Virus record (IMG/VR): IMGVR_UViG_3300030107_004423
Span: 18,924-82,923 of that record
Strand: one strand, 5' to 3'
Length of the DNA stretch: 64,000 bases
DNA from: a virus
This document shows positions 4,973 through 59,674 of this stretch, one piece after another; the stretch's first letter is position 1; every line of letters starts with the position of its first letter. Both the position numbers and the translations under genes were made by a program. The notes under the pieces are model-generated. The model saw only the letters and a list, made by a program, of their open reading frames with translations, was not told where the DNA came from and ran no database searches.

Positions 4973-4982
4973 ATATTTAAGT

Positions 4983-5162: not shown

Positions 5163-5172
5163 TTAACTTCTC

Positions 5173-6743: not shown

Positions 6744-6751
6744 ATAGCCTC

Positions 6752-6898
6752 CTATTTTATCTCTTTAAATATCTTTATACACATATAGATAAATGTTGCA
6801 ACCCCAACTAGTAAGCTTACCACTGGTGGTACCATTTCCATAAAAGATATCCAAAAACCTCCCATTCCAACTCCTGCTGTTCTTAATGTATCTGCCAT
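6752..6898 (-). CDS. 48 aa holin-like membrane protein
   Basis: MADTLRTAGVGMGGFWISF..SLLVGVATFIYMCIKIFKEIK; conserved at 61529..61675. Confidence 0.6.
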   Translation of the reverse strand: MADTLRTAGVGMGGFWISFMEMVPPVVSLLVGVATFIYMCIKIFKEIK

Positions 6899-8302: not shown

Positions 8303-9003
8303 TATCTACCGCCTCTTTGTTGTTTTTGTTGTGGAGGTTTTCCAAAAGAATTGCTATAGTCTGCTTTTAAAGATTCTAAATGAGTATTTAAAGTTCTTGC
8401 CAATTCACTATCTTCCTCTGTTATGTTAATTTCTGCAATCTTAGCTTCTATTGATCTTATAGCTGCAAAAGTAACTACTAAATATACCATTTCTGCAGGA
8501 AAATACTTAACATCATCATGAGTATTATTTAAAGCTACACCATTACCATCTACTGGACTATTATTAATATAGTACACTTCAATACCATTATTACTACTTG
8601 GAACAGGATATACATTTACAATACCAGTATCATCTAATACATAAGCAGGATGATATTGAGATGCATAATGTATGCTATCTTTATCTACTACTCTTGATTG
8701 TAGAGCTACACTTACTTTTCTACACTCTCTCCATGCAGTAGATCCATCTGAACTTCCATCAGCTCCAGCTTCCCTTAAAACTGTAAGTATCTTTGCTCTA
8801 CCTATTTCTATTCCTTGAGAATCACTTGCAGTTTTTCTTATAAAAAGATCAGCATCTTGAGGTCTTGATGCTATAATTTTATTAGTAACATCTATAACAC
8901 CATCTCTTAAGAATTGACTTAATTCTGTATTGTCTGGAGTAGTACCACTATCAGATATTGTTATTCCTGTTAAAGCTGATACTTGTGAATTAAAATTTGC
9001 CAT
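8302..9003 (-). CDS. head-tail adaptor / tail tubular-like structural protein
   Basis: directly downstream of capsid genes; ELSQFLRDGVIDVTNKII also at window end (63353..64000). Confidence 0.65.
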   Translation of the reverse strand: MANFNSQVSALTGITISDSGTTPDNTELSQFLRDGVIDVTNKIIASRPQDADLFIRKTASDSQGIEIGRAKILTVLREAGADGSSDGSTAWRECRKVSVALQSRVVDKDSIHYASQYHPAYVLDDTGIVNVYPVPSSNNGIEVYYINNSPVDGNGVALNNTHDDVKYFPAEMVYLVVTFAAIRSIEAKIAEINITEEDSELARTLNTHLESLKADYSNSFGKPPQQKQQRGGR

Positions 9004-9017
9004 TTATCTCCTAAGGC

Positions 9018-9061
9018 GCCCGCCCTCCTAGAAGAACCCATATCATTCCAGGAGAGCGAGC
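9018..9061 (-). promoter_or_regulatory. GC-rich stem-loop between capsid and neck genes (attenuator/processing site)
   Basis: 15 bp stem GCTCGCTCTCCTGGA/TCTAGGAGGGCGGGC on - strand with G-U pairs. Confidence 0.55.
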
Positions 9062-9092
9062 TTTTTAGTTTGTTAGTTAACTGTTATGCATC

Positions 9093-9689
9093 CTATGTTG
9101 TTGCAAATGCCCCTGTAGCCGCTGAACCACCATTACCTTGGTTGCCCCCTACGCATTCTACATGCCATTTACTACCATTGAAAACAAACGTTAGTTTGGT
9201 GCCAATTCCCCAGCCGCCATTTGTAGCGCCTGTTAAATTCAAGAAATCGTCACCAGTTCCGTCTGCTATATCTATAGTATATCCAGCACCAGCAGCAACT
9301 GCTGTTTGCTTTAATACATATGATGTAGCAGCAAAGAACTCACCTGCTGTTCCATACTTATGAACTGCCGAATCAGCTAAAGCTGCGATATATAATACTA
9401 CTATCTTATCGCCAACTGTAGAACTAGCAGCTGCAGGCAGTGTATATGCCGCAGCATCTGTATCATTTAGATGATATGTTGTATTTGCTGCTAATGCTCC
9501 TGCAGCTGTTAATGCAGTTACGCTAGTATGAATACCAACACCTTTATTGATTTCATTAGCAGTAACTGTTAAATCACTAACTACACCAAAATCAGTTTCT
9601 GATATTGTCGCAAGCTCTTTAACTTCATCATAGGTAATCTCAGAGTCTGAGTGACCAGCTAACCAGTATTTTCCTTTACTTTGAGCCAT
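9093..9689 (-). CDS. capsid decoration / auxiliary capsid protein
   Basis: Ala/Gly/Thr-rich, TLPAA motif, follows major capsid gene. Confidence 0.6.
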   Translation of the reverse strand: MAQSKGKYWLAGHSDSEITYDEVKELATISETDFGVVSDLTVTANEINKGVGIHTSVTALTAAGALAANTTYHLNDTDAAAYTLPAAASSTVGDKIVVLYIAALADSAVHKYGTAGEFFAATSYVLKQTAVAAGAGYTIDIADGTGDDFLNLTGATNGGWGIGTKLTFVFNGSKWHVECVGGNQGNGGSAATGAFATT

Positions 9690-26687: not shown

Positions 26688-27417
26688 TTCCTAACTCCTT
26701 TGGTCTTTCTGCCGCTTCTAGAGTATCATCTGAAAAACCCTTAAATACAGCACCTGTTAATTGAGTAACTTGCGTCTTATTCTTATCTTCCATATCCATA
26801 ATATCAGCAAGCTTAAATAAAGCTTTCAACTTAGTATCATCCTTAGCCTCTTCTTTATCTATTACTCCCTTTATCTCTCTTAGTATATAACCTTCGTCTA
26901 TACCTAATTCTTCCATATGGGGTTTTAATTCTTCTTTCATACTACTTAATATCCTCGTTGTTTTCATTAATTTAGTGGCCTTCATACCTGCATAATGTGG
27001 ATCATTAGTAGGAAAAGCCTCTAAATAAGCTTTCTTTGGATCCATACCTTTACTCACATATTGCACAAATAAGGCCTCTTTACCAGATAAGGTCTGTCTT
27101 TTCTCTACTCTTTCATTACGTTCTAGGTTTCCACCTATACTATATATATTTACTCTTTTAGAGCTATCCAGCTTCTTCTTATCTGATACTATAAATGTCC
27201 CAGTACATGTCCCTATATAATGGACACACCTATCAGCACCACGTGCCTTCATCATCTTACCTTTACGTAAGATCTGAAGTACCGCACCATCATCAGCTAA
27301 CACCCAGTCACCTATAATACCATCTCTCCAATTACGTAGATAAACAAAGTCATCTGGTAATTCGTCAATGGAATCAAATACTGTGTGTTCTATTTTCCTT
27401 ATTCTGTAGTTTCTCAT
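26680..27417 (-). CDS. terS: probable terminase small subunit
   Basis: KEALFVQYV..AYLEAF..KATKLMK helix-turn-helix pattern followed by helical oligomerisation region (KLKAL.KL); near the start of the late block. Confidence 0.6.
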   Translation of the reverse strand: MRNYRIRKIEHTVFDSIDELPDDFVYLRNWRDGIIGDWVLADDGAVLQILRKGKMMKARGADRCVHYIGTCTGTFIVSDKKKLDSSKRVNIYSIGGNLERNERVEKRQTLSGKEALFVQYVSKGMDPKKAYLEAFPTNDPHYAGMKATKLMKTTRILSSMKEELKPHMEELGIDEGYILREIKGVIDKEEAKDDTKLKALFKLADIMDMEDKNKTQVTQLTGAVFKGFSDDTLEAAERPKELGNG

Positions 27418-27448
27418 AGGCTCAAGGCCGCCAGGCCTTGGTAAATAA

Positions 27449-27628
27449 TTAAGCTAATCCCAGAATATTGCTATCAAGTTCTAATAACATTCTTGCCATC
27501 TCTTCTGGGCATAAAACATCTTTATCATCTATTGTAAATATAAGCTCTTCTTCATCAAGATATTCATCAATCTCACAACCATCTCCATTATCATCATATT
27601 TAATAGTCAGATTATATTCCTTCTTCAT
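27449..27628 (-). CDS. 59 aa highly acidic protein
   Basis: AGGAGG RBS; MKKEYNLTIKYDDNGDGCEIDEYLDEEE..; not in ORF track. Confidence 0.7.
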   Translation of the reverse strand: MKKEYNLTIKYDDNGDGCEIDEYLDEEELIFTIDDKDVLCPEEMARMLLELDSNILGLA

Positions 27629-27685
27629 AAGTCCTCCTGGATATAGTTCTCCCTGAGAGTTTCAAACTTTTAACTTTAAATTTCC

Positions 27686-27862
27686 TCTAGAGCCAGTCAT
27701 ATCTCCCTTACTCTAGATTTATATTAAAGCAGTTTTTATCGGTTATTGGGGACCCCTCAGTTAACTATATTGATAACCTACAACCCAACTTCTGACCCTA
27801 CCAGCAGAACGATTCTCACGTGTACCTTAAGGGTGATAACTATATTTCAATAATTACCGATG
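27686..27862 (-). ncRNA. putative structured ncRNA / 5' leader of the late transcript
   Basis: closing stem 27738-27748/27848-27861, internal hairpins, second stem 27686-27717; begins just downstream of a promoter-like motif. Confidence 0.5.
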
Positions 27863-27864
27863 CG

Positions 27865-27897
27865 ATAATATAATCTTTGATATTGGTATTTTACAAA
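27865..27897 (-). promoter_or_regulatory. putative promoter TTTG-N20-TTATATTAT
   Basis: same motif at 31202 and 32977 on + strand. Confidence 0.5.
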
Positions 27898-28062
27898 TGA
27901 TATTTTTGGAATTGTAATAAAGGTTTTAAAAAATGTGGCATTTTGGTGTGTGGTCTTTTATATAGAGGTACCCCCTTATCAGGGGTTTTTCGTTATCACG
28001 ATTTCGTTATTTTTCATTTGTATTTTTTTTGATTAATTAATTCATAAGAATAAGGAGAGCCA

Positions 28063-28344
28063 ATGGCACTAGAAAATGAAGTAGAAGTTGTAGAAGATAA
28101 CAAGTATGCTAATGCTTTAGATAGTCAGCTGCATAGAGAGTATGATGATGGTAAGGCTGAGTATAAGCAAGCTATTAAGTTATGTCATAGTAAAGCAGAA
28201 CGTAGAAGAGTTACTAATCTATACATGGAAGACTTGATGGATCTAGCAATAGATGCACAAGAAGAGCAAGATTGGGAACTTAGAGCTACTATTAATCTAA
28301 GGATTAAAGCTTTACAACGTAGGGTTTATGCTGGTAATAGGTAA
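28063..28344 (+). CDS. hypothetical early protein
   Basis: TAAGGAG RBS; first gene after strand switch. Confidence 0.7.
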   Translation: MALENEVEVVEDNKYANALDSQLHREYDDGKAEYKQAIKLCHSKAERRRVTNLYMEDLMDLAIDAQEEQDWELRATINLRIKALQRRVYAGNR

Positions 28345-28347
28345 TGG

Positions 28348-28378
28348 TATAGGGGAATATTCATTTATTCCCTTTATA
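28348..28378 (+). terminator. hairpin terminator-like element
   Basis: TATAGGGGAATA..TATTCCCTTTATA. Confidence 0.5.
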
Positions 28379-28549
28379 CTTCTTATTCATATGGTTAGCG
28401 TGGACATGATAATGACGCACACATTAGTTATTATTACACCAACTTATACCACACATATACACATTAATAAGCACTTCCATGCAATTATCTTAGGCAACCA
28501 ATAAGAACATAAAAAGATAGCCATTAATAATAAGATAAGGAGATGTAAT

Positions 28550-28762
28550 ATGTATTTGTATGAGGTGTTTATGATAGTTGAGTCAACTGCTCTTACTGCA
28601 ATATTAAACACTAAGTTAGTCAAAGTGGCAAATGTCATGGCGAAGAACTCAAGTTATGCTTGTCGTAGAGCTAGGTTACATTATGATATTGAATCTGAAC
28701 AGCAATTAGTTGCCTATCAGAGGGTGAGATATAATCATCCAATCATAGATGATGATGACTAA
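28550..28762 (+). CDS. hypothetical early protein
   Basis: TAAGGAG RBS. Confidence 0.55.
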   Translation: MYLYEVFMIVESTALTAILNTKLVKVANVMAKNSSYACRRARLHYDIESEQQLVAYQRVRYNHPIIDDDD

Positions 28763-28829
28763 ATTAACTCCTTGGGGGATGGAGAGAAATTCCCCCCTTA
28801 ATTATTAATTAAAAGAAAAGGAGTAGTAA

Positions 28830-29108
28830 ATGTTCGTAAAATTACAAGTAAATAAGTTTTATAACTTAAATGAAATAAGATCAGTTGAGATAGTACCATT
28901 TGATAGTCTAGGTACAGATTTAAATAGATCATACATAGCAATATATTATGTAGAAAGACATCCTGATGGTGAATTAAATGACACATTATATTATGGTGAT
29001 GATTGTAAGCATGATAATAATCAGTTTAGAAAGGACGTTGAAGAGATTTATAGAGCTACACACACTAAGATGTGGACAGCTGATCGCCAAGCATTTAAAT
29101 TTGAATAA
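28830..29108 (+). CDS. hypothetical early protein
   Basis: AAGGAG RBS, 92 aa. Confidence 0.7.
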   Translation: MFVKLQVNKFYNLNEIRSVEIVPFDSLGTDLNRSYIAIYYVERHPDGELNDTLYYGDDCKHDNNQFRKDVEEIYRATHTKMWTADRQAFKFE

Positions 29109-29132
29109 TAGTAGCCTGTGAGCTATCTTCAA

Positions 29133-29590
29133 GGGAGAGTGAGGTAAGTACGATTGCTCCTTTCGCTTACCTCCTCCTGCAGTTTTAATATTATCTACCA
29201 TAATAGATATTTGAATCATAGACTTTTGGGGAAAGGTTGGTGATCTAGTATTGTGTTCTGACCGAAGATTATGGTAGTAATAAAGCCCTCTTAATAGCCA
29301 AGTGTTGTATGAATAGATATTGGAGTGTCTATAAGTACAAATTTACCACAAAGCCGTGACTTGAGAGGGTATAATTTAAGGGCATAAGAATATCTACAAA
29401 ATGTTATTATAAAGACATTTATAATGGGCTAGTAGATAACACCATACTGATGAGTATGTGGCTCTTATGTCCTAAACATTACACTCTAGAGCTAAGAGTG
29501 GAGTAGGTTAATGGCACAAGCTCTGATGGTTGAATCCTGGGATATATATTGATCAACTTATGAATGCTGTTAGCTAGGGTATGTAAATGT
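29133..29590 (+). ncRNA. tandem array of structured RNA-like domains
   Basis: five consecutive stem-closed units; mismatches in the closing stems read as G-U on + strand; no long ORF. Confidence 0.6.
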
Positions 29591-29644
29591 ATTAATAACA
29601 ATGCAATAGGCGGAAGGACAACACGAGAGTGATAACAAATACCG

Positions 29645-29875
29645 ATGAGCAACAATGAACATAAATTTCACAGGTTATCCTCCATTAATACAGCCTGTGA
29701 TGTACATAGAAAAGAGGTAGCAATGAATAAAGATAGATGGTATGAGTATTGTGATGATATTGGTTGTATATGTCAAGGCCGTGATTATGAAATAATTAAA
29801 CATAACATGCTAGACGGATGGTCAAGAGAAATGTCTGAAGCATTGTTAGGTGAACATAAATATGGAGGTATGTAA
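29645..29875 (+). CDS. hypothetical protein (start may be 29723)
   Basis: AGAGGT RBS before internal Met. Confidence 0.5.
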   Translation: MSNNEHKFHRLSSINTACDVHRKEVAMNKDRWYEYCDDIGCICQGRDYEIIKHNMLDGWSREMSEALLGEHKYGGM

Positions 29876-30110
29876 TGACAGATGCAATGTATGATTTATT
29901 ATATATTATAGATATAGTATCGCAATGTGTATTAAGTGGGAGTATTATGATGTATGTTGTATATCATATAATAAAGAAATGAATAAATTAGATAATGTTA
30001 GTAAATATTATTTATTAATGGATTACTATTTATTAAGCTTTATGTTCGCTGACTATAAGAATGATAATAGATACTCACTGATAGTTAAAGAGCTAAATAG
30101 GAGATATAAT

Positions 30111-30251
30111 ATGATACCCTGCAAATGTATACAATGTGATATAGATATAGAGGATGCAACAGAAGCATTTTGTGAGAAATGTTTAAAGCGTGGTCCTAAA
30201 GATAAACTTAAAAAACTAATAAGAAAGGGAGTAGTTAATGAAAGAAGATAG
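30111..30251 (+). CDS. small zinc-finger protein (CxxC..CxxC)
   Basis: AGGAG RBS; MIPCKCIQC..FCEKC; 3' part of ORF-track 29925..30251. Confidence 0.55.
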   Translation: MIPCKCIQCDIDIEDATEAFCEKCLKRGPKDKLKKLIRKGVVNERR

Positions 30252-30552
30252 AGTATATTGGCTGCAAGGCTGGGAAGGTAGAGTAATTCAAGGTGGTTTA
30301 TATCGTAGTGATATAGCTGCAGTAATTAAACTACAAGAACAACATATAAATGGTCATGTAGTAGGTATTAAAATAAGTGAGAAAGAATCAGGTAAAGATA
30401 ATTATACAATTCAATTTATAATAAATACCGAAGATCAAATAGCTACTAATTATGAAAACAAAAAAGAGATGAATAAGCAATACGATGATAAACATAGAAC
30501 TACTGAATTTACAGAAGGCAAGTTATTTAAAGAGGATGATGATAATGTATAA
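30238..30552 (+). CDS. hypothetical protein
   Basis: 104 aa with RBS. Confidence 0.65.
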   Translation: MKEDRVYWLQGWEGRVIQGGLYRSDIAAVIKLQEQHINGHVVGIKISEKESGKDNYTIQFIINTEDQIATNYENKKEMNKQYDDKHRTTEFTEGKLFKEDDDNV

Positions 30553-30690
30553 AAAAGATAACGAAAAATGGGAAGAAGTACCAATGGAAGATTTATGGGA
30601 AGATGGTGAATTAACTGAACAAGAGGTAGCAACTACATTATTTGTAAGAGTAAGGAATCAAGGTATTTGGAAAATAATAAGGAGAATACA

Positions 30691-30987
30691 ATGAGTTATT
30701 ACAATACTAACAAGTTGATGGGTAAAGATCTAGAAACAGCTATTAATAAAGCTAAATCACAGGAATCACAGCTAGAGCTACACATGAAAGTTAACTCTAA
30801 TAATAGCTACACACCATTTCAATTACAAGAAGCATTTATTACAGATTATAATATAATATTTCCTATAACATCTGTACGTAGAGCTTTAACTAACCTTACT
30901 AATAATAATATTCTTATTAAAAGTGAGAAAACAGTCATTGGTGATTATGGTAGTCCTAATCATACATGGCAATATAAGGAGAAATAA
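30691..30987 (+). CDS. winged helix-turn-helix DNA-binding protein
   Basis: TPFQLQ..PITSVRRALTNL..LIKS..G.YG.P...W pattern; TAAGGAG RBS. Confidence 0.6.
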   Translation: MSYYNTNKLMGKDLETAINKAKSQESQLELHMKVNSNNSYTPFQLQEAFITDYNIIFPITSVRRALTNLTNNNILIKSEKTVIGDYGSPNHTWQYKEK

Positions 30988-31172
30988 TGGCACTTGGAGA
31001 AGTTAGAAAGCGTACTATTACTATGTACGATAAAATGATTAAATATTATAAAAATAACATTGGAGAGATAAGTGAATATGGCAATACTGTTATTACTGAA
31101 GATCTAATAAAGAATATTGAAAAGAGAAGATCTGAATTGTCTGAAACTTATGATAGCCGATGGGTAAGATAA
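30987..31172 (+). CDS. hypothetical protein
   Basis: 61 aa, TAATG-coupled. Confidence 0.6.
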   Translation: MALGEVRKRTITMYDKMIKYYKNNIGEISEYGNTVITEDLIKNIEKRRSELSETYDSRWVR

Positions 31173-31201
31173 AATCTTATTACTGGAAAGAAAGCATATC
31201 A

Positions 31202-31234
31202 TTTGATGATAGTTTAAATGACTATTTATATTAT
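31202..31234 (+). promoter_or_regulatory. putative promoter TTTG-N20-TTATATTAT
   Basis: repeated motif upstream of a two-gene operon. Confidence 0.5.
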
Positions 31235-31703
31235 ATGCATGTTAAAGAACAACAAGAAAAAGGAGAACGTAGTGAAGCAAAAATACGTAAAGTATCAACA
31301 AGGAGATGTGTTGATGTTAAGAATAAATGATAATGAAGAAATGATGGACTCATTTATTAAGTTTAATGGTAAAAGTACCATTCATAGTAGAAAAAATCCA
31401 AAAGAATCATCTGTTGCTACATTAGCATTGGGTGAGGCAACTGGACATCATCATTCTATAGATGTAATGCATGATGAAAATAAAGATGTAGAAGTTACTA
31501 GACACTTTAATAATTGGGGATGGAATAATAGAAATAATCAAGGCTTAGGTCGAGTTCCTGAATATTTTGAAGTATCTGGCTCTGAAGCAACTATTAAGCA
31601 TCAAGAACATGAAGCTATTACATTACCAGAAGGTGTTTATAGAGTTAGAATAGTTAAAGAATATGATCCATTCTCTAACACAGTAAGTGGGGTAGCAGAC
31701 TAA
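31218..31703 (+). CDS. His-rich conserved protein (QGDV..GEATGHHH..HQEH..LPEGVY..EYDP), partner of DUF6745-like gene; likely GTG start near 31272
   Basis: motif series recognised by eye. Confidence 0.7.
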   Translation: MTIYIICMLKNNKKKENVVKQKYVKYQQGDVLMLRINDNEEMMDSFIKFNGKSTIHSRKNPKESSVATLALGEATGHHHSIDVMHDENKDVEVTRHFNNWGWNNRNNQGLGRVPEYFEVSGSEATIKHQEHEAITLPEGVYRVRIVKEYDPFSNTVSGVAD

Positions 31704-32728
31704 TGTATAAAAATATAAAAACACTTATGAGGCATGGTAAAGTAAATGAAGCTCTTATCTGTAGAGGTGGTGCTAAATTCATGTATAATATGTTTTATTT
31801 TGTCAAAATGGCTAAAAATAAGATAAATGTATACAAAGGCAATACATGGCAACAAGGAAAGTATGTAAAAACTCCTGTAGCTAAATTAACCAATGAATAT
31901 ATTATGTTATGTCCAAGAACTGCTTCTGAAAGATATAATAGACCTCCTGATGAAGCTCAAATAGCTAGAAAATGGGATATCTGGGATATTGGATCATTCT
32001 TATCTCTTAATCTATTATATAATACTTATACTAGATATAGCAGAGGATATGACATAGTACATGCAAATGGTAATGAGTTTATTCCATTTTCAAATAAAAT
32101 GAAGTTTGATTGGAATGGAAAGCTAATATCTAAAATACCTAAATGGGCTAATGAAAAGTATAATCAATATTTAGATGAAGATAAGTCTATTAGAAATAAT
32201 GGTGCTAAAGCTAGATATCATGATAAGAAAGCTATTGAAAGATATGAGGCTTCTGAAGGTAATTTTGAATATATACCTATTGATGATGTATTTAAGCATC
32301 GTAATTCAGATAGAAGGCGTAGATTAATAAATCACTTTGGTATAGAACAAGTATTGTCTCCATATAAGCAAAATGTATTAGATAAAGCTACTGTTAATGG
32401 ACTACCATATGAATTGGTACAAATAACAATACCATTATCATGGAGTGAATGGTCAGGACAATCACAAACAGTTCATCCAGACAAAGTATGTACATATCTT
32501 AAAATGACCAATCCTAGTACAGGAGAGTATCATTTAGAAGGTGTTGCTACTAAAGCTGATAATAACTGGGATCATATAGCTGATCTTACTGTTAAATCTG
32601 CTCTTGCATGGAGAGATGGTGAAAATGAAAATACTAGATTCACCCCACTTGATATGCCTGATGGAGTAGCTGAACATGATGGTGGATTGTCTGATTATGC
32701 TTATGTAGAGCCTACAACATTAACCTAA
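31703..32728 (+). CDS. DUF6745-like domain protein
   Basis: N.D.RR.LI..FG.E..L, LKMTNPSTG..H...V and T...ALAW motifs in C-terminal half. Confidence 0.65.
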   Translation: MYKNIKTLMRHGKVNEALICRGGAKFMYNMFYFVKMAKNKINVYKGNTWQQGKYVKTPVAKLTNEYIMLCPRTASERYNRPPDEAQIARKWDIWDIGSFLSLNLLYNTYTRYSRGYDIVHANGNEFIPFSNKMKFDWNGKLISKIPKWANEKYNQYLDEDKSIRNNGAKARYHDKKAIERYEASEGNFEYIPIDDVFKHRNSDRRRRLINHFGIEQVLSPYKQNVLDKATVNGLPYELVQITIPLSWSEWSGQSQTVHPDKVCTYLKMTNPSTGEYHLEGVATKADNNWDHIADLTVKSALAWRDGENENTRFTPLDMPDGVAEHDGGLSDYAYVEPTTLT

Positions 32729-32738
32729 GGAGGGTTAC

Positions 32739-32903
32739 ATGACAGAGGAGATGATGATAACTGATAATAAAGATGGTGTTATTGCAACACGTAATCGCAT
32801 ATCAGTTACTGTTGATAGAGAGAGCAACGTAGTTTCAATGAAAGACCTAGAGTATACTTTTGAAGATATATTTGCTTTGGCAGATAAACTTAAAAACATT
32901 TAG
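32739..32903 (+). CDS. small hypothetical protein, 54 aa
   Basis: TAAGGAGG RBS. Confidence 0.6.
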   Translation: MTEEMMITDNKDGVIATRNRISVTVDRESNVVSMKDLEYTFEDIFALADKLKNI

Positions 32904-32926
32904 AGGTAATTTGAATTGAAGCTACA

Positions 32927-32979
32927 TGGGAGGTGTAATAAAGGTTGTAAAAAACCCTGCACCTCCCCCTTTTCTCTTT
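32927..32979 (+). terminator. intrinsic terminator
   Basis: GGGAGGTGTA..TGCACCTCCC followed by T-rich tract. Confidence 0.65.
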
Positions 32980-33007
32980 GATAGATATCATGAAAGTATT
33001 ATATTAT
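32977..33007 (+). promoter_or_regulatory. putative promoter TTTG-N18-TTATATTAT
   Basis: third copy of motif, directly after a terminator and upstream of replication genes. Confidence 0.45.
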
Positions 33008-33268
33008 GCAGATGGAAAACAACCAAGAATATAATATTGATGATGAAATTATAAAGGTCTATTTAAAAGTTTATTTAAATGCTTTAGAACTAAAAAAAGA
33101 CCCTAAAGTCATAAACATTATTCAAAAGAGAATGATGTTTTTAGTAAAAAGAAAAAGAATAGATAATAATTAAATCCAGTATGGGAATCCATGCTATAAG
33201 GAACTAGACATCCATAGAAGATTCCGTCTAGGCTGGTATATTATCTAATTTCACAACAGGAGAACCCA

Positions 33269-33733
33269 ATGGAAGAACAATCGCAAGAAGTAATTCCTGC
33301 TGTCCAACAGGTCCCGCCAGAAAACACGAACTCTGAGTGGAAATCTGACCAAATCGACAAGCTAGCAGGAGCTTTAGCAAAGGCACAGTCTGAAATAAGA
33401 GGTGCAGCTAAGAAAAGTAAAAATCCATTCTTTAATAGTAATTATGCTGATTTACATACAGTAATAGAATCTTGTATGCCACAATTAAGCAAGAATGGTA
33501 TATCTGTAGTTCAAGGAACTGATTTCAATAGAACAGATGGATGGTTTGTAACAACAATGTTGATGCATTCATCAGGACAATGGATAAAGAGTAGTTGTAA
33601 GATCATATTAGGCCCAAAGCAGGATATTCAAGCATTAGGTAGCGCAATAACATATGGTAGAAGATATGGATTGTCATCTATAGCTGGTATAGGTCAATTT
33701 GATGATGATGGTAATAGTATTTCAAAAAAATAA
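33269..33733 (+). CDS. erf: ERF-family single-strand annealing recombinase
   Basis: KNPFFNSNYADL and QALGSAITYGRRYGL..IAGI..DDDGN signatures. Confidence 0.9.
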   Translation: MEEQSQEVIPAVQQVPPENTNSEWKSDQIDKLAGALAKAQSEIRGAAKKSKNPFFNSNYADLHTVIESCMPQLSKNGISVVQGTDFNRTDGWFVTTMLMHSSGQWIKSSCKIILGPKQDIQALGSAITYGRRYGLSSIAGIGQFDDDGNSISKK

Positions 33734-33744
33734 AGGAGAGCTAA

Positions 33745-34293
33745 ATGGCTATTAAGACAATGTCTGCCTCAACTGGAGGTGGAAGTAAATATTCTGAAGG
33801 GTGGCATGAAGCTACTATATCTAAAGCAGAATATGGTGACTGGAATGGTAAAAAGTATCTAGAAGTATGGTTTGATGGTTATGGTGAGTACCAAACTATG
33901 AAAGTTTGGGAAACTATAAGTTCAAAAGATAATGAAGAATTTGCTATAGCTAGAGTATTTAAATATGCTCAAGCAGGCATTATAGCAGTTCTTGATGATC
34001 CTACTGGCAAAAGACCAATAATTCAATTTGACGATGAGGCTCAAGGATTAGTAGGTAAGAATGTATCTATATACTTATATCCTGATCCAAAGAAACCTCA
34101 GTATAATAGAATATCTAGTGAATGTGCACCTATTCCAGGAAAATATGAGCATATGACATTCAGTGAAGACATTTGTAATAGTATTCAAACTGGTGCAGCT
34201 AAGAGATTAGAAACATATTTAGCTAAAAAAGCTAATAATGTTACAGTCCCAGTTACAGAAACTAATACACAATCAGCTGATATCCCTTTCTAA
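33745..34293 (+). CDS. single-stranded DNA-binding protein (putative)
   Basis: follows erf; beta-rich core and C-terminal DIPF tail. Confidence 0.7.
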   Translation: MAIKTMSASTGGGSKYSEGWHEATISKAEYGDWNGKKYLEVWFDGYGEYQTMKVWETISSKDNEEFAIARVFKYAQAGIIAVLDDPTGKRPIIQFDDEAQGLVGKNVSIYLYPDPKKPQYNRISSECAPIPGKYEHMTFSEDICNSIQTGAAKRLETYLAKKANNVTVPVTETNTQSADIPF

Positions 34294-34315
34294 AAGATAT
34301 AAAGGTAAAGTAATT

Positions 34316-34354
34316 AGGGGATATAAGTTTTAGCCGACCCAATGTCCCCTTTTT
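34316..34354 (+). terminator. intrinsic terminator
   Basis: AGGGGATAT..ATGTCCCCT followed by T run. Confidence 0.6.
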
Positions 34355-34369
34355 ACATTAAGGAGAATA

Positions 34370-34552
34370 ATGAAATTAAAAAAAGCAATAGAAAATCTAT
34401 TAATTATGTATATGCCTGAAGAGAAAAGACACTTTGAAGAATCTTCTAAAATGGCTATGGATCATAATATAGATGTAGGTGAAAATGATCATATATATTT
34501 CTCCTTTTATAGACTAAAGATTGGTTTAGAGAGAGGAGAATTTGATGATTAA
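34370..34552 (+). CDS. hypothetical protein
   Basis: TAAGGAG RBS. Confidence 0.65.
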   Translation: MKLKKAIENLLIMYMPEEKRHFEESSKMAMDHNIDVGENDHIYFSFYRLKIGLERGEFDD

Positions 34553-36293
34553 AGAGTTTGCATTTGGATTATCAAATAGACATCACTTTAGTGATTCAGC
34601 AGATATGGAGAAGTATGCTGGTATGGCTCAAGATACATTTATGTCACTGTATGATTATGATGCTCATGTGGTAGATTATGTAAAGAAAAATCATACATTA
34701 TCATCTTATGATGGGATGCTTTACATGCCTAATGAATATATATTAGATGTAGATGGTTCAAACTCAGAAGAAGCGAGACAGGCAGCTATTGGTTTGACTA
34801 TACTATTAGATGATATGTGCATACCATACCAGTTGTATTTCTCAGGAACAGGATTTCATTTAGGAATACCTGAAGCTGCATTTAGATGGAAACCATCACC
34901 TGATTTGCATTTAAAAGTAAAAGATGAGATGAAAGCACAAGGAATATATGAATATGCTGATGCATCGGTATCAGATAAAACAAGGCTTATTCGAATTGTC
35001 AATACTTTGAATAGTAAATCTAAGTTATGGAAAATACCATTAAAACCAAGTGAGTTACATGGAACTATAGATACTATATTAGAACTTGCAAAAACTAAAC
35101 GCTCAACATATGAATGGAACACAGCTGTTAGAGATAATGACTGTGAACCAGTATTTGACGTATTGAAAAGAAAAACTGTAGCTAGTGATAAAACATTTGA
35201 AACAGTAACTCTTGGCAGAAACCCTGATCCTATATGGTATACTTGTGTACAAAAGATGGTAGCAGGTAGTGCTCAAGGATCAAGACATCAGATAGCTTTA
35301 CGCATAGCAGCACATTTGCGTTGGAGATATCCAGAGCATATGGTAAGATTGGTAATGGAAGATTGGAGACAAAGAGTTGATCTTAAATCACACCCATTTA
35401 CTAAAGCTGAAATGGATAAAATAGTTACTGATTGTTATGAAGGTCATAATGGTAATGGATATAACTATGGTTGTTCAGATATTTGGATGGATAAATATTG
35501 TAGTACTAATTGTAGGCTTTATAAGTCTAAGAAATCACAAAATACTATGGATGCTAAAGCCATGGAAAAGGAATTAGTTGATTTTCTTACTACAAATCAT
35601 GATCCTATAAATATAGGCAAACCTTATGGACAAGATTTCCCTGTTTATCCAGGAGAAGTAGTAATTATACAGGCACCTCCTAAATCTATGAAAACAATGT
35701 TCTTACAGAATATAGTTAATATGTTCAAAAGAAACACTTATTTTGTAGAAATGGAGATGAGTCCACGTCAAATGTGGATGAGATTTGTAATGATGGAGAA
35801 TGATTGGGATGAAAAACAGTTAAAAGACCATTATAGTCAATATGCTAATGGTATAAGTCAGCAATTTGACTGGTTAACTGTAGATTATAACAGTTGTTTT
35901 CCACATGAATTACAAAAACGTATAATGTTACTACCAAGAAAGCCTGAAATAGTAGTTATAGACCATATGGGCTTATTAAGAAGTCAAAAATCAGATAATA
36001 ATATGAAAGTAGAGGAAGCTTCACAAGCATTAATGGAACTTGCTGTAAAAAATAATATTATCGTATTTGCTGTATCTGAAATAACTAAATCAGCTTTTCA
36101 AGAAGGTATGAATATAGCTTCAGCAAAAGGTTCATTTAGAGTAGCTTATAATGCAAATAAAGTGCTATCTATTACTCCATTTAAGGAGAAAGAGACTAAT
36201 TTAATTAGATCTTTAAGGATAGAAAGTACAGCTAATAGAGAAAAAGAGCATCTTGATGTTAATTTACCTGTTAAAGGAGCTAAAATAGGATGA
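34542..36293 (+). CDS. primase-helicase fusion (AEP primase/primpol + Cys-rich PriL/PriCT-like region + RecA/SF4-like helicase)
   Basis: AEP motifs LDVD, YFSGTGFH, D..V...TRLIR..NTLN.KS; four Cys cluster; Walker A-like APPKSMKT, Walker B VVIDH. Confidence 0.8.
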   Translation: MMIKEFAFGLSNRHHFSDSADMEKYAGMAQDTFMSLYDYDAHVVDYVKKNHTLSSYDGMLYMPNEYILDVDGSNSEEARQAAIGLTILLDDMCIPYQLYFSGTGFHLGIPEAAFRWKPSPDLHLKVKDEMKAQGIYEYADASVSDKTRLIRIVNTLNSKSKLWKIPLKPSELHGTIDTILELAKTKRSTYEWNTAVRDNDCEPVFDVLKRKTVASDKTFETVTLGRNPDPIWYTCVQKMVAGSAQGSRHQIALRIAAHLRWRYPEHMVRLVMEDWRQRVDLKSHPFTKAEMDKIVTDCYEGHNGNGYNYGCSDIWMDKYCSTNCRLYKSKKSQNTMDAKAMEKELVDFLTTNHDPINIGKPYGQDFPVYPGEVVIIQAPPKSMKTMFLQNIVNMFKRNTYFVEMEMSPRQMWMRFVMMENDWDEKQLKDHYSQYANGISQQFDWLTVDYNSCFPHELQKRIMLLPRKPEIVVIDHMGLLRSQKSDNNMKVEEASQALMELAVKNNIIVFAVSEITKSAFQEGMNIASAKGSFRVAYNANKVLSITPFKEKETNLIRSLRIESTANREKEHLDVNLPVKGAKIG

Positions 36294-36469
36294 TACAGAT
36301 AACAAAATGGATAGATCCACATGATAAGGTATGGCATAAAGGTAAACTTGTGCCTGCCTTTGATTGGCTAACAGATCTACAAGTAAAACTAGAAAAGTTA
36401 ACTAAAAAAAGAGTAACAATAAGAACTGATGAAGGCAAAGTAGCTTTATTCAGAGAAAGGTTAAGATGA
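36290..36469 (+). CDS. hypothetical protein, 59 aa (MIQITKWIDP..)
   Basis: ATGA overlaps on both sides; not in ORF track. Confidence 0.65.
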   Translation: MIQITKWIDPHDKVWHKGKLVPAFDWLTDLQVKLEKLTKKRVTIRTDEGKVALFRERLR

Positions 36470-37251
36470 AGAACCCATACGCAGAAATGCGAAAAGTACC
36501 TTTGAATTATGAAGGTATTCAATCATCTGCTTACTCTGTTCAATACCAAGAATCTCTTGATGAATGGAAAGAGGCAGGAGTTGTAGGTAATAATTACATG
36601 TTATTACCAAATATTAAAGTAAAAGAAGCTGCTGATGAAGTAGCTTTATTATCAAATATCCCATTTGAACATGATAAAACATTCTTTGATGGCAAAAGAT
36701 ATGTATATTCATTAAGATCTACAAACATTATAGGTAATGTTAAACCAGGAGATGATATGGCATTAGGTATTCAATTCTGGAATAGCTATGACGGCAGTAG
36801 ATCCTTTGGATTCTCTATGATGCTTTATAGATTAATATGTACTAATGGTATGCTAAGTAAACAATACTTTAATACTTTTAGATTTAAACATGAACCAAAT
36901 AGCAATGGATGGGAAGAAAGCTTAAATCAAGTAGTCAATACTATTAATTCCACATCTCAAAATGGTCTTGATAGTATGATAGGAAAATTAAAAAAGCTTG
37001 ATAATCTTAAAATAACATCTAAAGAACTAGGTAGAATTAGACATAAACATCTTTCTGATATACCGTCTGGTTTATGGGGAAATATTATAGATAGATTCTT
37101 AGATCCTTCTAAAGAATATCATTCAGAAACTAGTGGATGGGGATTACTTAATGCTGCTACAGATATATTGTGGCATAAAGATAAACCTACAATAGCTAGC
37201 TATAATCAGAATGCATCTATAGTAGATGGATTGTGTAAAGCAATATCATAA
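36466..37251 (+). CDS. DUF932/DUF945-family protein
   Basis: NSYDGS......RLICTNGM and W.L.NA.T motifs. Confidence 0.8.
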   Translation: MKNPYAEMRKVPLNYEGIQSSAYSVQYQESLDEWKEAGVVGNNYMLLPNIKVKEAADEVALLSNIPFEHDKTFFDGKRYVYSLRSTNIIGNVKPGDDMALGIQFWNSYDGSRSFGFSMMLYRLICTNGMLSKQYFNTFRFKHEPNSNGWEESLNQVVNTINSTSQNGLDSMIGKLKKLDNLKITSKELGRIRHKHLSDIPSGLWGNIIDRFLDPSKEYHSETSGWGLLNAATDILWHKDKPTIASYNQNASIVDGLCKAIS

Positions 37252-37346
37252 ACTTTCACACGAGCAGGTACGCTTCTTATAAAACGCCAATAATAAGTAT
37301 AGCAACTTACCTAATAGCTGCCTGCTCAACAATTTAAAGGAGAACA

Positions 37347-37574
37347 ATGGGAGTACGTTTTAGAGAAACCAAAGATAAAATAGGTGATTATAAAGATAGT
37401 ATGGATAATATTAACGAATCTATAAAAACCTTGAAAGAGAAAATAGAAATTCTTGAAGAAAGGTTAAGTAAGGCTGAAGGTATTATCAAAATTATTCATT
37501 ATGAATCAAACCCAGCATATCTTGAAGGTTTAAAATTTAAATACGAAGAAATGTATGGAGACAAAAATGAGTAA
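37347..37574 (+). CDS. coiled-coil hypothetical protein
   Basis: AAGGAG RBS. Confidence 0.65.
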   Translation: MGVRFRETKDKIGDYKDSMDNINESIKTLKEKIEILEERLSKAEGIIKIIHYESNPAYLEGLKFKYEEMYGDKNE

Positions 37575-37785
37575 AAATGTATTAAAAGGTGAAATGGATA
37601 ATGTAGAAAGAAGATCTAGCGCCAGAAAAACATACAATAAGGAAAGAATATATAGTAAAGAATATGCTTCATGCAAAGATGCTAATACTAGATTTATGAA
37701 GATGGCTAATTTAGCTTCTGATAATGGTAGATGTTGGTGGATATATAACTATATAATGGCTAATTCAAAATACAAAGGAAAATAA
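37555..37785 (+). CDS. hypothetical protein
   Basis: in operon. Confidence 0.6.
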   Translation: METKMSKNVLKGEMDNVERRSSARKTYNKERIYSKEYASCKDANTRFMKMANLASDNGRCWWIYNYIMANSKYKGK

Positions 37786-37786
37786 T

Positions 37787-38149
37787 ATGGAAATAATAGG
37801 AGATGTTATAAAAAAACGTCAAAATCTAAGTGTAGAAGATGAATATCCCAGAATGTGTGATTCATTTGAACATATTACTGATGAAATGTTTGAATTGTTT
37901 AAAAAGAAACAGTCAGACTACGGTCCTACAAATATAGGTATGGGTAATCGTACTATAGAAACAGATGAAGATGTTCAAAGATCAATGATAGGATTGGTTG
38001 TTAGAATGAATGATAAAGTTCAAAGACTAATGAATCTTGTTCTTGACCGTAAAGATCCACAAAATGAATCTGTAGAAGATACATTGATAGATATAGCTAA
38101 TTATGCAGTAATGGCTAAATTAGTTATGGATAAAGAGTGGGGAAAATGA
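37787..38149 (+). CDS. nucleotide modification associated domain 1 (Nmad1/DUF1599) protein
   Basis: KKQSDYG..GLVVRMNDK..RL..ESVEDTLIDIANYA motif. Confidence 0.8.
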   Translation: MEIIGDVIKKRQNLSVEDEYPRMCDSFEHITDEMFELFKKKQSDYGPTNIGMGNRTIETDEDVQRSMIGLVVRMNDKVQRLMNLVLDRKDPQNESVEDTLIDIANYAVMAKLVMDKEWGK

Positions 38150-38370
38150 AGATAGTTGCTAAGCTATCTAAAGAGCATTATAATTGTTATATGTGTTCTT
38201 TTTCAGGATATGCAGAAAGATATATTGTAGTTCCACATATAGTAGATACAGATAAAGAATATACAATATGTAGTGCATGTGCTAAAAGAGAACATGGTAG
38301 TAAAAATAAAGTTAAATTATTAGATGTCATAGAAGAAAGGACAAAAACATGGCTACAAAAAAAGCAATAA
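38137..38370 (+). CDS. small zinc-binding protein
   Basis: CYMC..CSAC. Confidence 0.6.
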   Translation: MGKMKIVAKLSKEHYNCYMCSFSGYAERYIVVPHIVDTDKEYTICSACAKREHGSKNKVKLLDVIEERTKTWLQKKQ

Positions 38371-38570
38371 AAGAAGTTCAAGAAAAAGCTGAAAAACACC
38401 ATAAAAATAGAGTTGATCAACTTTTCACTATGTTTGAATCTCATGGTGAGATGCTTGCAGATCATATAGGCTATATAAATGATATAAATAAAAGAATTGA
38501 TGAATTAGAGTCTGAATTAAATCAGAGTAAGGCATTAATTACCACTATGAGAGGAAGAATGGGAGTATGA
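38349..38570 (+). CDS. coiled-coil hypothetical protein
   Basis: 73 aa in operon. Confidence 0.6.
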   Translation: MATKKAIKEVQEKAEKHHKNRVDQLFTMFESHGEMLADHIGYINDINKRIDELESELNQSKALITTMRGRMGV

Positions 38571-38785
38571 AGCAGAGAACAAAACCTACACGTAATGAGA
38601 TAAAAACTGTATTAAATAATATGTTAATAGAAATGTCTCAAATGTCTGAATTTCTTAAAGGATTAGACACTTCATTTGCAGCTTATTTAGAGATGAAAGG
38701 TGATGGAGATAAATTAAATAAATTCATTAAAGCTAAGATAAAGGAGGCTAAGGATGCCCAGCAAGAGCAAAGCAAAGGGGAATAG
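38567..38785 (+). CDS. hypothetical protein
   Basis: ATGA-coupled. Confidence 0.6.
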   Translation: MKQRTKPTRNEIKTVLNNMLIEMSQMSEFLKGLDTSFAAYLEMKGDGDKLNKFIKAKIKEAKDAQQEQSKGE

Positions 38786-39080
38786 GTTTGAAAGAGAAAT
38801 AGTTAAGATAGCTAAGGAGCATGGATTTGAATCTAGAAGAGCATGGGGATCAAATGGTCAAGCTTTAGGAATGCATGAAGAAGTAGATCTAACTCTAGGT
38901 AAAAATCCTGAACTTAAAATACAGGCTAAATGTAGAAAGAGTATAGCTTCTTATCTTATCCCTAGTGAGCATGTAGATGCAGTAGTTTGCAAGGAAGACA
39001 GAGGTGAACCCTTGATGATAATGAGATTAAATGATTGGCTCAATATGTTTTGGGTTAACTGTATGACGGAGGATAGATGA
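38754..39080 (+). CDS. Holliday junction resolvase (Hjc-like PD-(D/E)xK nuclease)
   Basis: SKAKGNRFERE..RAWGS..VD..IQAK. Confidence 0.8.
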   Translation: MPSKSKAKGNRFEREIVKIAKEHGFESRRAWGSNGQALGMHEEVDLTLGKNPELKIQAKCRKSIASYLIPSEHVDAVVCKEDRGEPLMIMRLNDWLNMFWVNCMTEDR

Positions 39081-39286
39081 AACAGCTGTTAAAATTAGGA
39101 GATCATACATTCTTTGGATTAAGTTTGTTAAAATTAGATTTAAGGCAAAATGTATATGTTCTTATGATAACATTGATATTTTTTACTTTTGATTTTTCAT
39201 TTAGAAAATGGGGAGTAAGAATAGGAATGTCAAGTGGCGACTCTGAAGTATTTTTTAAAATACACTTAGGAGCTCAATGGAGTTAA
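39077..39286 (+). CDS. hypothetical hydrophobic protein
   Basis: ATGA-coupled; last + strand gene. Confidence 0.55.
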   Translation: MKQLLKLGDHTFFGLSLLKLDLRQNVYVLMITLIFFTFDFSFRKWGVRIGMSSGDSEVFFKIHLGAQWS

Positions 39287-39296
39287 TTAATCAATT

Positions 39297-39324
39297 AAGT
39301 AGGGATAGTTATCTGTCCCTACTT
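39297..39324. terminator. bidirectional hairpin at convergence of the two transcription blocks
   Basis: AAGTAGGGATAG-TTAT-CTGTCCCTACTT. Confidence 0.7.
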
Positions 39325-42036
39325 TCCTCTTAATTCTTCAGATAAAGCTATTAACTTTAAACTACCACTTTGATTTTTCTTTTTATTAAGCTTAAAAGGT
39401 TTAAATCCTAAGTACTCTTTAGATGCTTTATTTATAGCCTTTCTATTATCTTTTATCCAAGAACGTGGATATAAGCCTAATTCATGCCTAACTATATCCA
39501 TACCTCTTCCATCACGTATAGCAGGCCCAGTTTTTGTCATCCACCTTGCAAACTCAGTATTTAATTTATTCCACATATTTCTTTTTTCTACAGTATCTAT
39601 TCTTTTCTTTGGGCCAACCCAATCAGGAACATCACCTTCTCCATAATAATCTATATAACCTGTAAGCATTCTTTGCCAATTTTCATCTGGCATTTTATAT
39701 AGTTGAAGTGCATTTAACCCATATAATATATCGCCTACTAAAGGCCCTGTATAATCATTTATTAACCCTCTTTTTCCTTCTAGTTCTTTAGGGGGTTTTT
39801 TAGATTTTAACGTCTTTCTACCTTGAACATTTGCTTTAAATTCTTCTACTGGAAGAGTTAGATAATCTTTCATATCTCTAATTCTTCTTACAGTATCATT
39901 CTCTAATAAATTATTAAAATCTAAGTTAAATCCTACAGATAAAGCTTGTACAGCTGTATATATTCCTGCAAATCTTAAAGCTTGTCTTAATTCAGGAGCA
40001 TCCCATTGAGCTGATAAGGCAGCATCTTTAGCTCCATGCAATATTTTAGATTGAAGATTTAAAAATGACATAGGATAATGTAAAAATTGGAACACCATCT
40101 CACCAGTAGCAGTAGCATAATCTCTACCTTTCATTTTAGGAAGTCCATCAGGACCAATTTCACCTGCAGGAGCAGTACCACCTATAGCTCTTGCTTTAGC
40201 ATGTGATGCATATTCAAAAGCAAAAGCATTAACAGATTTTAATGCAAATCTAGTGGCCATTTGCTGTATTTTACGGTTATTAGCTGAATCTAATTTTTCT
40301 ATAGCATTATAATCTGTAGGTTTTAATATATTATGATCTTTTAAAGATTCATAAGCTTGAACCCATGCAATTCTAAACATCCATTTACGAGTAGCATTCT
40401 CAGTAAACCTATGGAATACCAAAGATTTACCTACTACATTATCTATCATAGGATCTAAAGTTTTTAAAACTCCTCTATCTCTATATGTAACCTTATTTTT
40501 TACTGGATCAAATATAATATCACTTTGATTAACAGAAGAAGGTATTAATCCTTCAGCTACTAATTCTCTACCACCTTCTGCGAATTTAAATCCCTGCTCC
40601 GTTTCTATTTTAGTAAGCATAGATTCATAATGAGAATTATATTTTCCTATAGCAGCTGTAGCACTAGATATACCATTTTCTGCAAAGAAGTAGGCAGCAC
40701 TAGCACCATTTCTTATAGCTCCTGTAACAGACAATCCCATAGATTTTAAAGTTTCAGCTGCCATTAAACCTCTAACCATAGCATTTACATAATTAGGTCT
40801 TTCTAAGTTTCCTTTAGTAGCTACTTGAAAAGTATCCTCAAGATATCCTCTCATACTTCTTATAAATTCAGGATTAGTATCATCTTTTTGAAATTTTCTT
40901 ATAGCTGGTAAATATTGTTCTTGTATAAAATTGATTTTATTAAAAGCTATTACATCTTTAGAGTAGTTAGTCAGTATAAAGAATGGATTCTTACTCCATG
41001 AATTATTTAAAAGCTCGTTACGAGATTTAGCAGCATCTGGTATCATAGTTTCTATTTTATCAACCACAACTCCTAAAGCAGTGTCAGCCTCATTTCCTTT
41101 TTTTGCTTCTAATGCTTGCCTCATTTTATAATTAACCTCAACTATATTATCCATTATATAGTGAGGAAGATAACCACCTTCTTTAATTCCCTTGCCTATC
41201 TTTTCTTTGGCTTGTCTGATTCTTTCTACATATTTTTGGCCTGTCTTAGGAAGTAACGGACTATCATAAACCATTTTAACTACATTTTCCATTCTATCTA
41301 ATCCATTTATTAATACTTTTCCCATATTATCCAATAAAGATCTAGATTCTTTTACAGCTAAAATAACATTCCTATCATATTTAGTGCCTCTTTGAGTATT
41401 TTTTAAGAAATTAGTATTATCCATCTCCATTAAAGATATATAATCATTAATTACTTCATCTCCATATTTAGTAAATAAATCGTTATATTCTTTTGTATAT
41501 TCAGTGTTAACACCTTCATCACCTTCAACCATTATAAGTCTTTCCAGGTCAGCTAATCTTTTTTGGTATTTTTTTACTTCTTTTTTAGATTTGCCTGTTT
41601 TTAATATTAAAGCATTTCTTATATGACTAGCTATAGATTTAGATGTTGTTAAATATTGATCTAAATTATTACGTTCATAGTTAATAGCTTCATTTACTTT
41701 TTCATAAAATACTCTTGTTACTGGAGAATAGTTAGCTATAGCATCAGATACATAAAAATATCTTTTAAAAGTACCTATTTTTCTATACTTGTAATTATAT
41801 TCTATGTTATCTATTTCTTTTTTCATTCTATTTATCATACCTTCTGAGAAATTAAAATCACTGCTAAAAGGAATTTTAAATAAATGTTCAGATACATCAT
41901 TTATATATAACTCAGCATTTCTATCATTAGGACTAGACCCACCTATTTTCCCAATACTTTTAGATAGCTTTTTGTTCCAATGACTAACGACATCTTCAAA
42001 TCTTTTATTTGGTACACCGTAAAAACAATCTATCAT
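39319..42036 (-). CDS. large internal virion / ejection protein (putative)
   Basis: 905 aa helical protein, TAATG-coupled to the 2830 aa gene. Confidence 0.6.
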   Translation of the reverse strand: MIDCFYGVPNKRFEDVVSHWNKKLSKSIGKIGGSSPNDRNAELYINDVSEHLFKIPFSSDFNFSEGMINRMKKEIDNIEYNYKYRKIGTFKRYFYVSDAIANYSPVTRVFYEKVNEAINYERNNLDQYLTTSKSIASHIRNALILKTGKSKKEVKKYQKRLADLERLIMVEGDEGVNTEYTKEYNDLFTKYGDEVINDYISLMEMDNTNFLKNTQRGTKYDRNVILAVKESRSLLDNMGKVLINGLDRMENVVKMVYDSPLLPKTGQKYVERIRQAKEKIGKGIKEGGYLPHYIMDNIVEVNYKMRQALEAKKGNEADTALGVVVDKIETMIPDAAKSRNELLNNSWSKNPFFILTNYSKDVIAFNKINFIQEQYLPAIRKFQKDDTNPEFIRSMRGYLEDTFQVATKGNLERPNYVNAMVRGLMAAETLKSMGLSVTGAIRNGASAAYFFAENGISSATAAIGKYNSHYESMLTKIETEQGFKFAEGGRELVAEGLIPSSVNQSDIIFDPVKNKVTYRDRGVLKTLDPMIDNVVGKSLVFHRFTENATRKWMFRIAWVQAYESLKDHNILKPTDYNAIEKLDSANNRKIQQMATRFALKSVNAFAFEYASHAKARAIGGTAPAGEIGPDGLPKMKGRDYATATGEMVFQFLHYPMSFLNLQSKILHGAKDAALSAQWDAPELRQALRFAGIYTAVQALSVGFNLDFNNLLENDTVRRIRDMKDYLTLPVEEFKANVQGRKTLKSKKPPKELEGKRGLINDYTGPLVGDILYGLNALQLYKMPDENWQRMLTGYIDYYGEGDVPDWVGPKKRIDTVEKRNMWNKLNTEFARWMTKTGPAIRDGRGMDIVRHELGLYPRSWIKDNRKAINKASKEYLGFKPFKLNKKKNQSGSLKLIALSEELRGK

Positions 42037-59668: not shown

Positions 59669-59674
59669 TATTCC

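Follow-up and report, generated by a model that had tools for sequence, protein, structure and literature searches.

The ORF-free gap in the early-side gene block of this uncultured marine phage is non-coding and modular, folds preferentially on the plus strand, is conserved, and is syntenic with RNA genes of related phages. We read it as a series of plus-strand RNA modules, each autonomous, located at a hot spot for phage RNA genes, an interpretation to which we assign a probability of about 0.45, i.e., somewhat below even odds, and the island is probably a new accessory RNA locus. It constitutes a new family within a known kind, the accessory structured RNAs that phages carry in tRNA/GOLLD islands. 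Candidates of this kind have already been predicted in large sets from IMG/VR (PMC10690425).

The window, that is, the whole stretch of DNA that was analyzed, comprises 64,000 nt within an 82.9-kb IMG/VR record, and complete relatives of the phage are ~54-57 kb. With the portal protein as query, no cultured relative was found. The plus-strand genes at ~28.06-39.3 kb, including ERF, primase-helicase, and resolvase, make up an early-side block that diverges from the minus-strand terminase and structural genes. Two diverged copies of gene blocks, with 68-89% identity, lie ~54.8 kb apart (4903-7063 / 59601-61837, and also 8213-8925 / 63264-63967), and the 82.9-kb record therefore looks like ~1.5 genome lengths, with two ~55-kb phage variants joined. 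A cluster of very stable local folds was also observed at 8976-9526 of the window, on both strands (z -3.3 to -4.6, GC 0.42-0.44), in or beside ORFs 8302-9003 and 9093-9689.

The gap (Table 1) is bordered by the stop codon of the 92-aa ORF at 29108 and by an SD-preceded ATG at 29723. A sequence-only reading of this DNA had described an ORF-free gap in the early region that folds into consecutive closed RNA units. The gap is indeed free of plus-strand ORFs over all 614 nt, the longest stop-to-stop frame in 29109-29722 being 43 aa, and it does lie within the early-side gene block, in the slot where relatives have tRNA-Met, GOLLD, and Pistol. No homologs of the flanking 92-aa ORF were found in viral contigs; a homolog of ORF 31703 was found in one locus, where the upstream sequence is too short to reach the island.

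Table 1. Features of the RNA island in the window and of RNA genes at related loci (z: stability of each isolated unit relative to 200 dinucleotide shuffles, plus strand / minus strand; the interval folded is given where it differs from the feature).
Feature	Location	Strand	z (plus / minus)	Remarks
ORF-free RNA island	29109-29722 (614 nt)	+		between 92-aa ORF (28830-29108) and 50-aa ORF (29723-29875)
U1	29133-29177	+	-2.4 / -3.1	simple hairpin; equally stable on both strands; one variant (joint 29126>29195) lacks or replaces it
U2	29189-29283	+	-2.6 / -2.2	long irregular hairpin; never parted from U3 in variants seen
U3	29285-29370	+	-4.15 / -1.56	three-way junction: 10-bp closing stem and two arms
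U4	29379-29473	+	-5.74 / -3.4	three-way junction with two arms and an 11-bp closing stem; no local fold of the window is more stable
U5	29478-29603	+	-1.2 / -0.5 (29476-29590)	conserved module; predicted long hairpin no better than shuffles
Tail	29604-29706	+	-0.1 / +0.7 (29591-29722)	highly conserved, mostly unstructured; 9-bp hairpin 29668-29700 at end
GOLLD	L066:2788-3203, L028:696-1112; also records of L008, L030, L033, L014	- (L066, L028)		covariance model
Pistol ribozyme	L066:3994-4056	-		49 bits; immediately upstream of homolog of window ORF 28550
Module B	L064:649-1056, L032:1671-2082, L031:1650-2061, L022:2772-3210, L020:3020-3461, L060:951-1384, L061:2804-3237, L057:3532-3880	-		ORF-free RNA, related phages

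The whole 621-nt stretch folds with -162.5 kcal/mol on the plus strand (z -3.07) and with -128.6 kcal/mol on the minus strand (z -1.42). All five units, U1 to U5, were recovered in the MFE fold, both of the entire 621 nt and of each unit alone, and the centroid fold likewise gives the five units, so the consecutive closed units of the earlier reading reappear, favored on the plus strand. That reading had also proposed a comparison with shuffled sequence, which bore out one part of the island and not another. U3 and U4 are outliers, with plus-strand z-scores of -4.15 and -5.74, and their predicted folds are clearly non-random and plus-strand specific. The modeled stability of U1 and U2, whose borders were picked post hoc, is marginal, and that of U5 (-1.2) and the tail (-0.1) is at chance level, i.e., no better than in shuffles. 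When stability was regressed on composition, the 100-nt window at 29376, which corresponds to U4, ranked first among the ~2,560 plus-strand windows of the 64 kb; on a scale of 480 nt, the z-score of the region was only -1.0 to -1.7 relative to the genome background.

The Rfam search suggested alongside the sequence-only reading was run on the window, and no family explains the gap: nothing was found at gathering scores in the window, at E≤10 around the gap (28900-29900), or at E≤1 over 27400-39400. ARAGORN called 0 tRNA genes in the window, and the Rfam tRNA model (RF00005) had no match at E≤10; a tRNA ancestry of the units was rejected, as local alignment to ten tRNAs of relatives was no better than to shuffles. 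The covariance model of the conserved GOLLD 3′-domain (RF02032) matched nowhere in the 82.9-kb record at E≤10, and the same model gives 88-176 bits in six related records. The ROOL model (RF03087) also had no match at E≤10, in a search that found none in control genomes either. Ribozyme models (Pistol, hammerhead, twister, hatchet, and HDV-like) gave none at E≤10 in 28900-29900 and none at E≤1 in 27400-39400. The gap had no blastn match in a phage collection, and neither the gap (blastn, nhmmer) nor a three-sequence profile found anything in 71 loci related by their small terminase (TerS). Four exact 18-21-mers from U2, U4, U5, and the tail found no relative in IMG/VR besides the record itself, and a U4 covariance model run over 51 sources returned its three known copies only. 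Overall, the gap belongs to no known family.

Several more specific interpretations were considered and rejected. There is no repeat family inside the gap and there are no direct repeats of a common unit, which agrees with the earlier statement that the units share no primary sequence and are not CRISPR; a CRISPR array and type III antitoxin repeats were both dismissed for want of direct repeats. The record has no RVT_1 match, which speaks against a retron msr-msd, and the genome has no RtcB. A group I intron was rejected given that there is no Rfam Intron_gpI match and that the flanks are separate small ORFs varying independently. The motif CUGAUGA in U4 is not read as a hammerhead, as it lies in a hairpin loop with no flanking stems and no model match. 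The 9-mer AGCCTGTGA flanks the gap content at 29113 and 29692, and ~0.7 such pairs are expected by chance. Similarly, TATAAT at 29370-29375, before U4, is not promoter evidence, since ~90 occurrences per strand are expected in the A/T-rich window.

Natural variants were drawn from two ocean contigs, L073 and L075 (one metagenome scan), and from Logan contigs (two DNA runs and two RNA runs) that were compared with positions 28000-30600. L074 was rejected as a third variant, its match being a chance 18-mer inside a gene. Both L073 and L075 lack 29073-29370 (U1-U3) as well as ORF 29723, and they carry different closed hairpins, 65 and 68 nt in length (-22 and -19 kcal/mol, respectively), inserted exactly in the U4-U5 linker, just 5′ of U5. 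The hairpin insert of L075 (3811-3878, minus strand) has 22 nt (95% identity) in common with the non-coding gap of the distant relatives L065/L067 (2086-2107), a hint that small hairpin modules may circulate between RNA islands. A candidate helix closing the whole gap (29122-29129 with the SD at 29711-29721) was discarded, as it is not conserved in L073 and L075.

In Logan contigs, other sequence is joined directly to 29376 in three independent contexts (from 28461, 29072, and 29110), and one joint (29126>29195) omits U1. In another variant, unrelated sequence stands upstream of 29604, i.e., the tail lies behind foreign sequence. The borders of gain, loss, or replacement in the variants (29127, 29195, 29376, 29478, and 29604) all coincide with the borders of predicted closed units, where the linkers are short and A/T-rich. 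Because the breakpoints lie at unit borders and nearby ORFs are swapped likewise, the behavior of the units matches that of genes in phage mosaics, and natural recombinants support the view that the closed units are separable. The U4-U5-tail block occurs with each of the three upstream neighbors just mentioned and with either ORF 29723 or ORF 29875 downstream, and is therefore not tied to one gene.

The island is also well conserved. Between the window and L073/L075, identity is 86% in U4 (85.8% to L075) and 93-94% over 29478-29706 (93.6% to L075 for U5 and the tail), and the flanking genes have 79-89%. In strain contigs, pieces of the gap show 0-4% differences, the exception being a divergent U4 copy of the L073/L075 type (12/106), and pieces of the flanking ORFs mostly show 4-16%, two ORF pieces having none. 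Judged by these identities, the U4-U5-tail core is more strictly kept than the neighboring protein genes, and the high identity of the core could instead reflect recent horizontal spread, not constraint.

The same variants bear on a reading in which the hairpins act in cis, punctuating the early transcript as RNase III/E sites, 3′-end stabilizers, attenuators, or translational operators, and serve as recombination cassettes with microhomology points for shuffling, rather than as trans-acting RNAs. Several features would suit such elements: U1 is strand-symmetric and lies just past a stop codon, U2 and U5 are long quasi-continuous helices, the joints fall within A/T-rich linkers, and the tail hairpin lies ~20 nt upstream of the SD of the next gene, with a loop (CCUCC/CCUUC) complementary to that SD. 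However, the five or six tandem elements are not interrupted by any ORF, the genes upstream and downstream of the U4-U5-tail block differ between variants, and conservation reaches beyond the hairpins; we regard cis action as quite unlikely.

Substitutions were compared with the predicted pairing in three homologous sequences, using 83 pairs modeled for U4, U5, and the tail hairpin. Across the three sequences, 98% of the modeled pairs are paired, and 13 of the 83 are G-U on the plus strand. Two-sided (compensatory) changes were found at two pairs, one in an inner arm of U4 and one in the tail hairpin (29668-29700), which also has one wobble change. The one-sided changes that keep a pair are all between G-U and Watson-Crick (6/6), so that only plus-strand pairing is kept. 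Among the variable pairs, three are broken, two of them by one-sided transitions. In U3, the strain variant G29335A turns a U-G pair into U-A. The argument of the earlier reading that G-U positions favor RNA over a DNA cruciform is upheld by these counts. Its expectation of covariation held to the extent that most changes keep plus-strand pairing; shuffles equaled the observed covariation in 50 of 500 trials, which is not significant because there are only three homologous sequences. Overall, the substitution pattern is consistent with the predicted structure, with weak covariation.

A minus-strand frame of 58-62 aa (29479-29667) that overlies U5 and the tail is not a gene, since its substitutions are all non-synonymous and a 1-nt indel shifts its end. 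Conserved small ORFs, the content that would have spoken for coding sequence in place of RNA units, were found on neither strand of the gap. It is highly improbable that the gap has no function, as a decayed gene remnant or a spacer with chance hairpins in A/T-rich sequence, or that it is a DNA-level site such as an origin or a packaging site. Such a reading draws on U5, the tail, and the 480-nt scale being no better than background, and on the lack of distant homologs in the collections searched. By contrast, conservation is higher in the gap than in the flanking ORFs, no fold of the window is more extreme than that of U4, and the minus-strand frame shows the changes just described, while the strand asymmetry and the G-U-preserving changes speak against a DNA cruciform.

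Parts of the island also appear in RNA-run contigs. Two marine metatranscriptome runs of one study gave contigs with at least 99% identity over 29229-29355 and 29478-29639, for which DNA carry-over is possible, and the same runs also cover bits of two upstream ORFs. The contig ends at 29478 and 29639 were rejected as RNA ends; DNA runs break at the same points, which identifies them as branch points of the assembly graph. One 156-nt RNA contig (run X14) extends from 29236 to 29355 and then back to 29229-29264, which is the expected output of a cyclic unitig with a period of 126 at k=31. The 126-nt period joins the loop of the small hairpin of U3 to the apical loop of U2. A DNA run with the same variant continues linearly, and the folding of the 126-nt circle is not unusually good. 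The period could be the result of a circular RNA, a template switch, a duplication, or an artefact.

Related loci, collected via the TerS homolog, place the gap in a broader context. Members of the lineage are uncultured marine podophages with genomes of ~55 kb and an injected crAss-like RNA polymerase. The early regions of the TerS relatives have ORF-free gaps of 400-940 nt, located 1-4 kb from TerS and in the same reading direction, and these gaps form a mosaic of shared conserved non-coding modules. A tRNA-Met(CAT) is present in at least 10 related loci. GOLLD was identified in 6 of the 44 records of the lineage (88-176 bits), often downstream of tRNA-Met, and this marine podophage lineage may be a natural home of the marine GOLLD RNAs. 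GOLLD comes directly after the homolog of window ORF 28550 in L066; in the window, a single small ORF separates ORF 28550 from the gap. The Pistol ribozyme of L066 lies ~750 nt before the GOLLD match and ~200 nt before the ORF-free stretch leading into GOLLD.

Some of the tRNA-like genes in the lineage are themselves unusual. L008 has a 90-nt tRNA call (648-737, minus strand) in the RNA island that also includes tRNA-Met and GOLLD; its anticodon, UUA, reads the UAA stop, and it could be a suppressor tRNA or else a long-arm tRNA that was mis-called. A tRNA-Met-like gene in L060 (2082-2155, minus strand), with a homologous piece in L064, is 95% identical between the two; it was missed by ARAGORN, and in L060 Rfam detected it only weakly (31.5 bits).

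Eight of the related loci contain Module B (Table 1), which is 430-460 nt long and has a terminal closing helix UGUGU/ACACA. Compensatory changes are present in 32 of its 70 predicted pairs, and it has no match in Rfam at E≤0.05. Module B looks like an undescribed large structured RNA alternating with GOLLD, and the two were never found together in this sample of relatives. It is conceivable, if doubtful, that the early region of the lineage is a hot spot in which GOLLD, Module B, and the U4-U5-tail island are interchangeable and that U2-U3 may also give a 126-nt circular RNA.

These alternating RNAs also raise the possibility that the island is one large multi-domain "ornate" RNA (~340-610 nt), a functional equivalent of GOLLD, ROOL, or Module B, with U4-U5-tail as its 3′ core, U1-U3 as an optional 5′ domain, and a permissive site for peripheral hairpins. 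Self-assembly or binding to a host complex is conceivable for such an RNA. In favor of this view, the island is found in the genomic niche that GOLLD and Module B also use, no two of the three occur together in the sample, and the size is similar. In GOLLD, too, the 3′ region is conserved and the 5′ region and a linker vary (10.1101/2024.12.08.627333), and the conserved "unstructured" tail of the island could make tertiary contacts. Nevertheless, each unit is self-closed, with no support for a long-range helix, U1-U3 can be dispensed with entirely, and unrelated sequence precedes the tail in one variant; neither GOLLD nor ROOL matched at E≤10, though the GOLLD model detects weak relatives within the lineage down to 88 bits. 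We therefore consider a single large RNA rather unlikely.

Under the preferred reading of autonomous modules, we infer the timing of transcription, the processing, the action in trans, and the target of the modules as follows. The modules would be arranged on the plus strand in the order U1, U2+U3, U4, U5, and tail, and would be co-transcribed with the small early-side genes, with U4-U5-tail as the putative conserved core and U1 and U2+U3 as presumed optional parts. Whole modules would be swapped at the short A/T-rich linkers, as genes are in phage mosaicism. Host endonucleases, e.g., RNase E or RNase III, may cut in or beside the linkers, and the modules, freed or stabilized by their closed stems, would then be trans-acting accessory RNAs. 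They would serve the phage as the alternative RNAs (tRNA-Met, GOLLD, Pistol, and Module B) do, most likely via host translation or RNA metabolism.

The abundant phage RNAs GOLLD and ROOL form striking cage structures, and their function is not known. The alternation of GOLLD, Module B, and the modular island at one slot amounts to a natural substitution experiment, in which the common traits of the alternatives (timing, neighbors, and partners) narrow the possible function, and the lineage gives compact candidates for structure work and pull-downs. If the hot-spot reading is true, a shared function would be met by different RNA architectures. In addition, the exact coincidence of predicted fold borders with natural recombination joints is an unusual argument, made from sequence alone, for small RNA folds as independent genetic units.

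Among known systems, GOLLD (RF02032) is like the island in being a phage-borne large non-coding RNA in the same early-region slot of related marine podophages, often just after tRNA-Met; according to 10.1101/2024.12.08.627333, marine GOLLD env-38 lies downstream of a Met-tRNA, and both GOLLD and ROOL are phage RNAs located close to tRNA islands, their 5′ region and linker being variable. With respect to tRNA proximity, which is a GOLLD trait, the island is phage-encoded and the window has no tRNA, and the same slot in relatives has tRNA-Met. Unlike GOLLD, the island has no match to the model at E≤10, its core spans ~336 nt compared with the 416 positions of the GOLLD 3′ model, and its units are individually closed and dispensable, with no pseudoknot or long-range helix supported. 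ROOL (RF03087), an RNA of ~580 nt and of similar length to the island, is encoded close to tRNA islands by phages as well as prophages, and its function is not known either. It differs from the island in architecture, and its model had no match at E≤10 in a search that was equally blank in control genomes.

Module B shares with the island the lineage, the early-region slot, the orientation, an RBS of the next gene directly after it, and the absence from Rfam. However, a terminal helix closes Module B into a single RNA, which has 32 compensatory pairs and no sequence in common with the island, whereas the island has no supported closing helix. In phage T4, species 1 and 2 (rnaC and rnaD) are small structured RNAs of unknown function beside the phage tRNA genes, cut from a co-transcribed polycistronic precursor; unlike that locus, the island of this phage has no tRNA and is known here from its sequence. 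The early RNase III sites of T7 and the T4-type PeSL cassettes are hairpin modules between early genes of lytic phages, located at processing points or, in hyperplastic regions, at recombination joints. They stand singly between genes, whereas the island is a gene-free series of five or six different tandem modules and, unlike those hairpins, has a core that is conserved beyond its stems.
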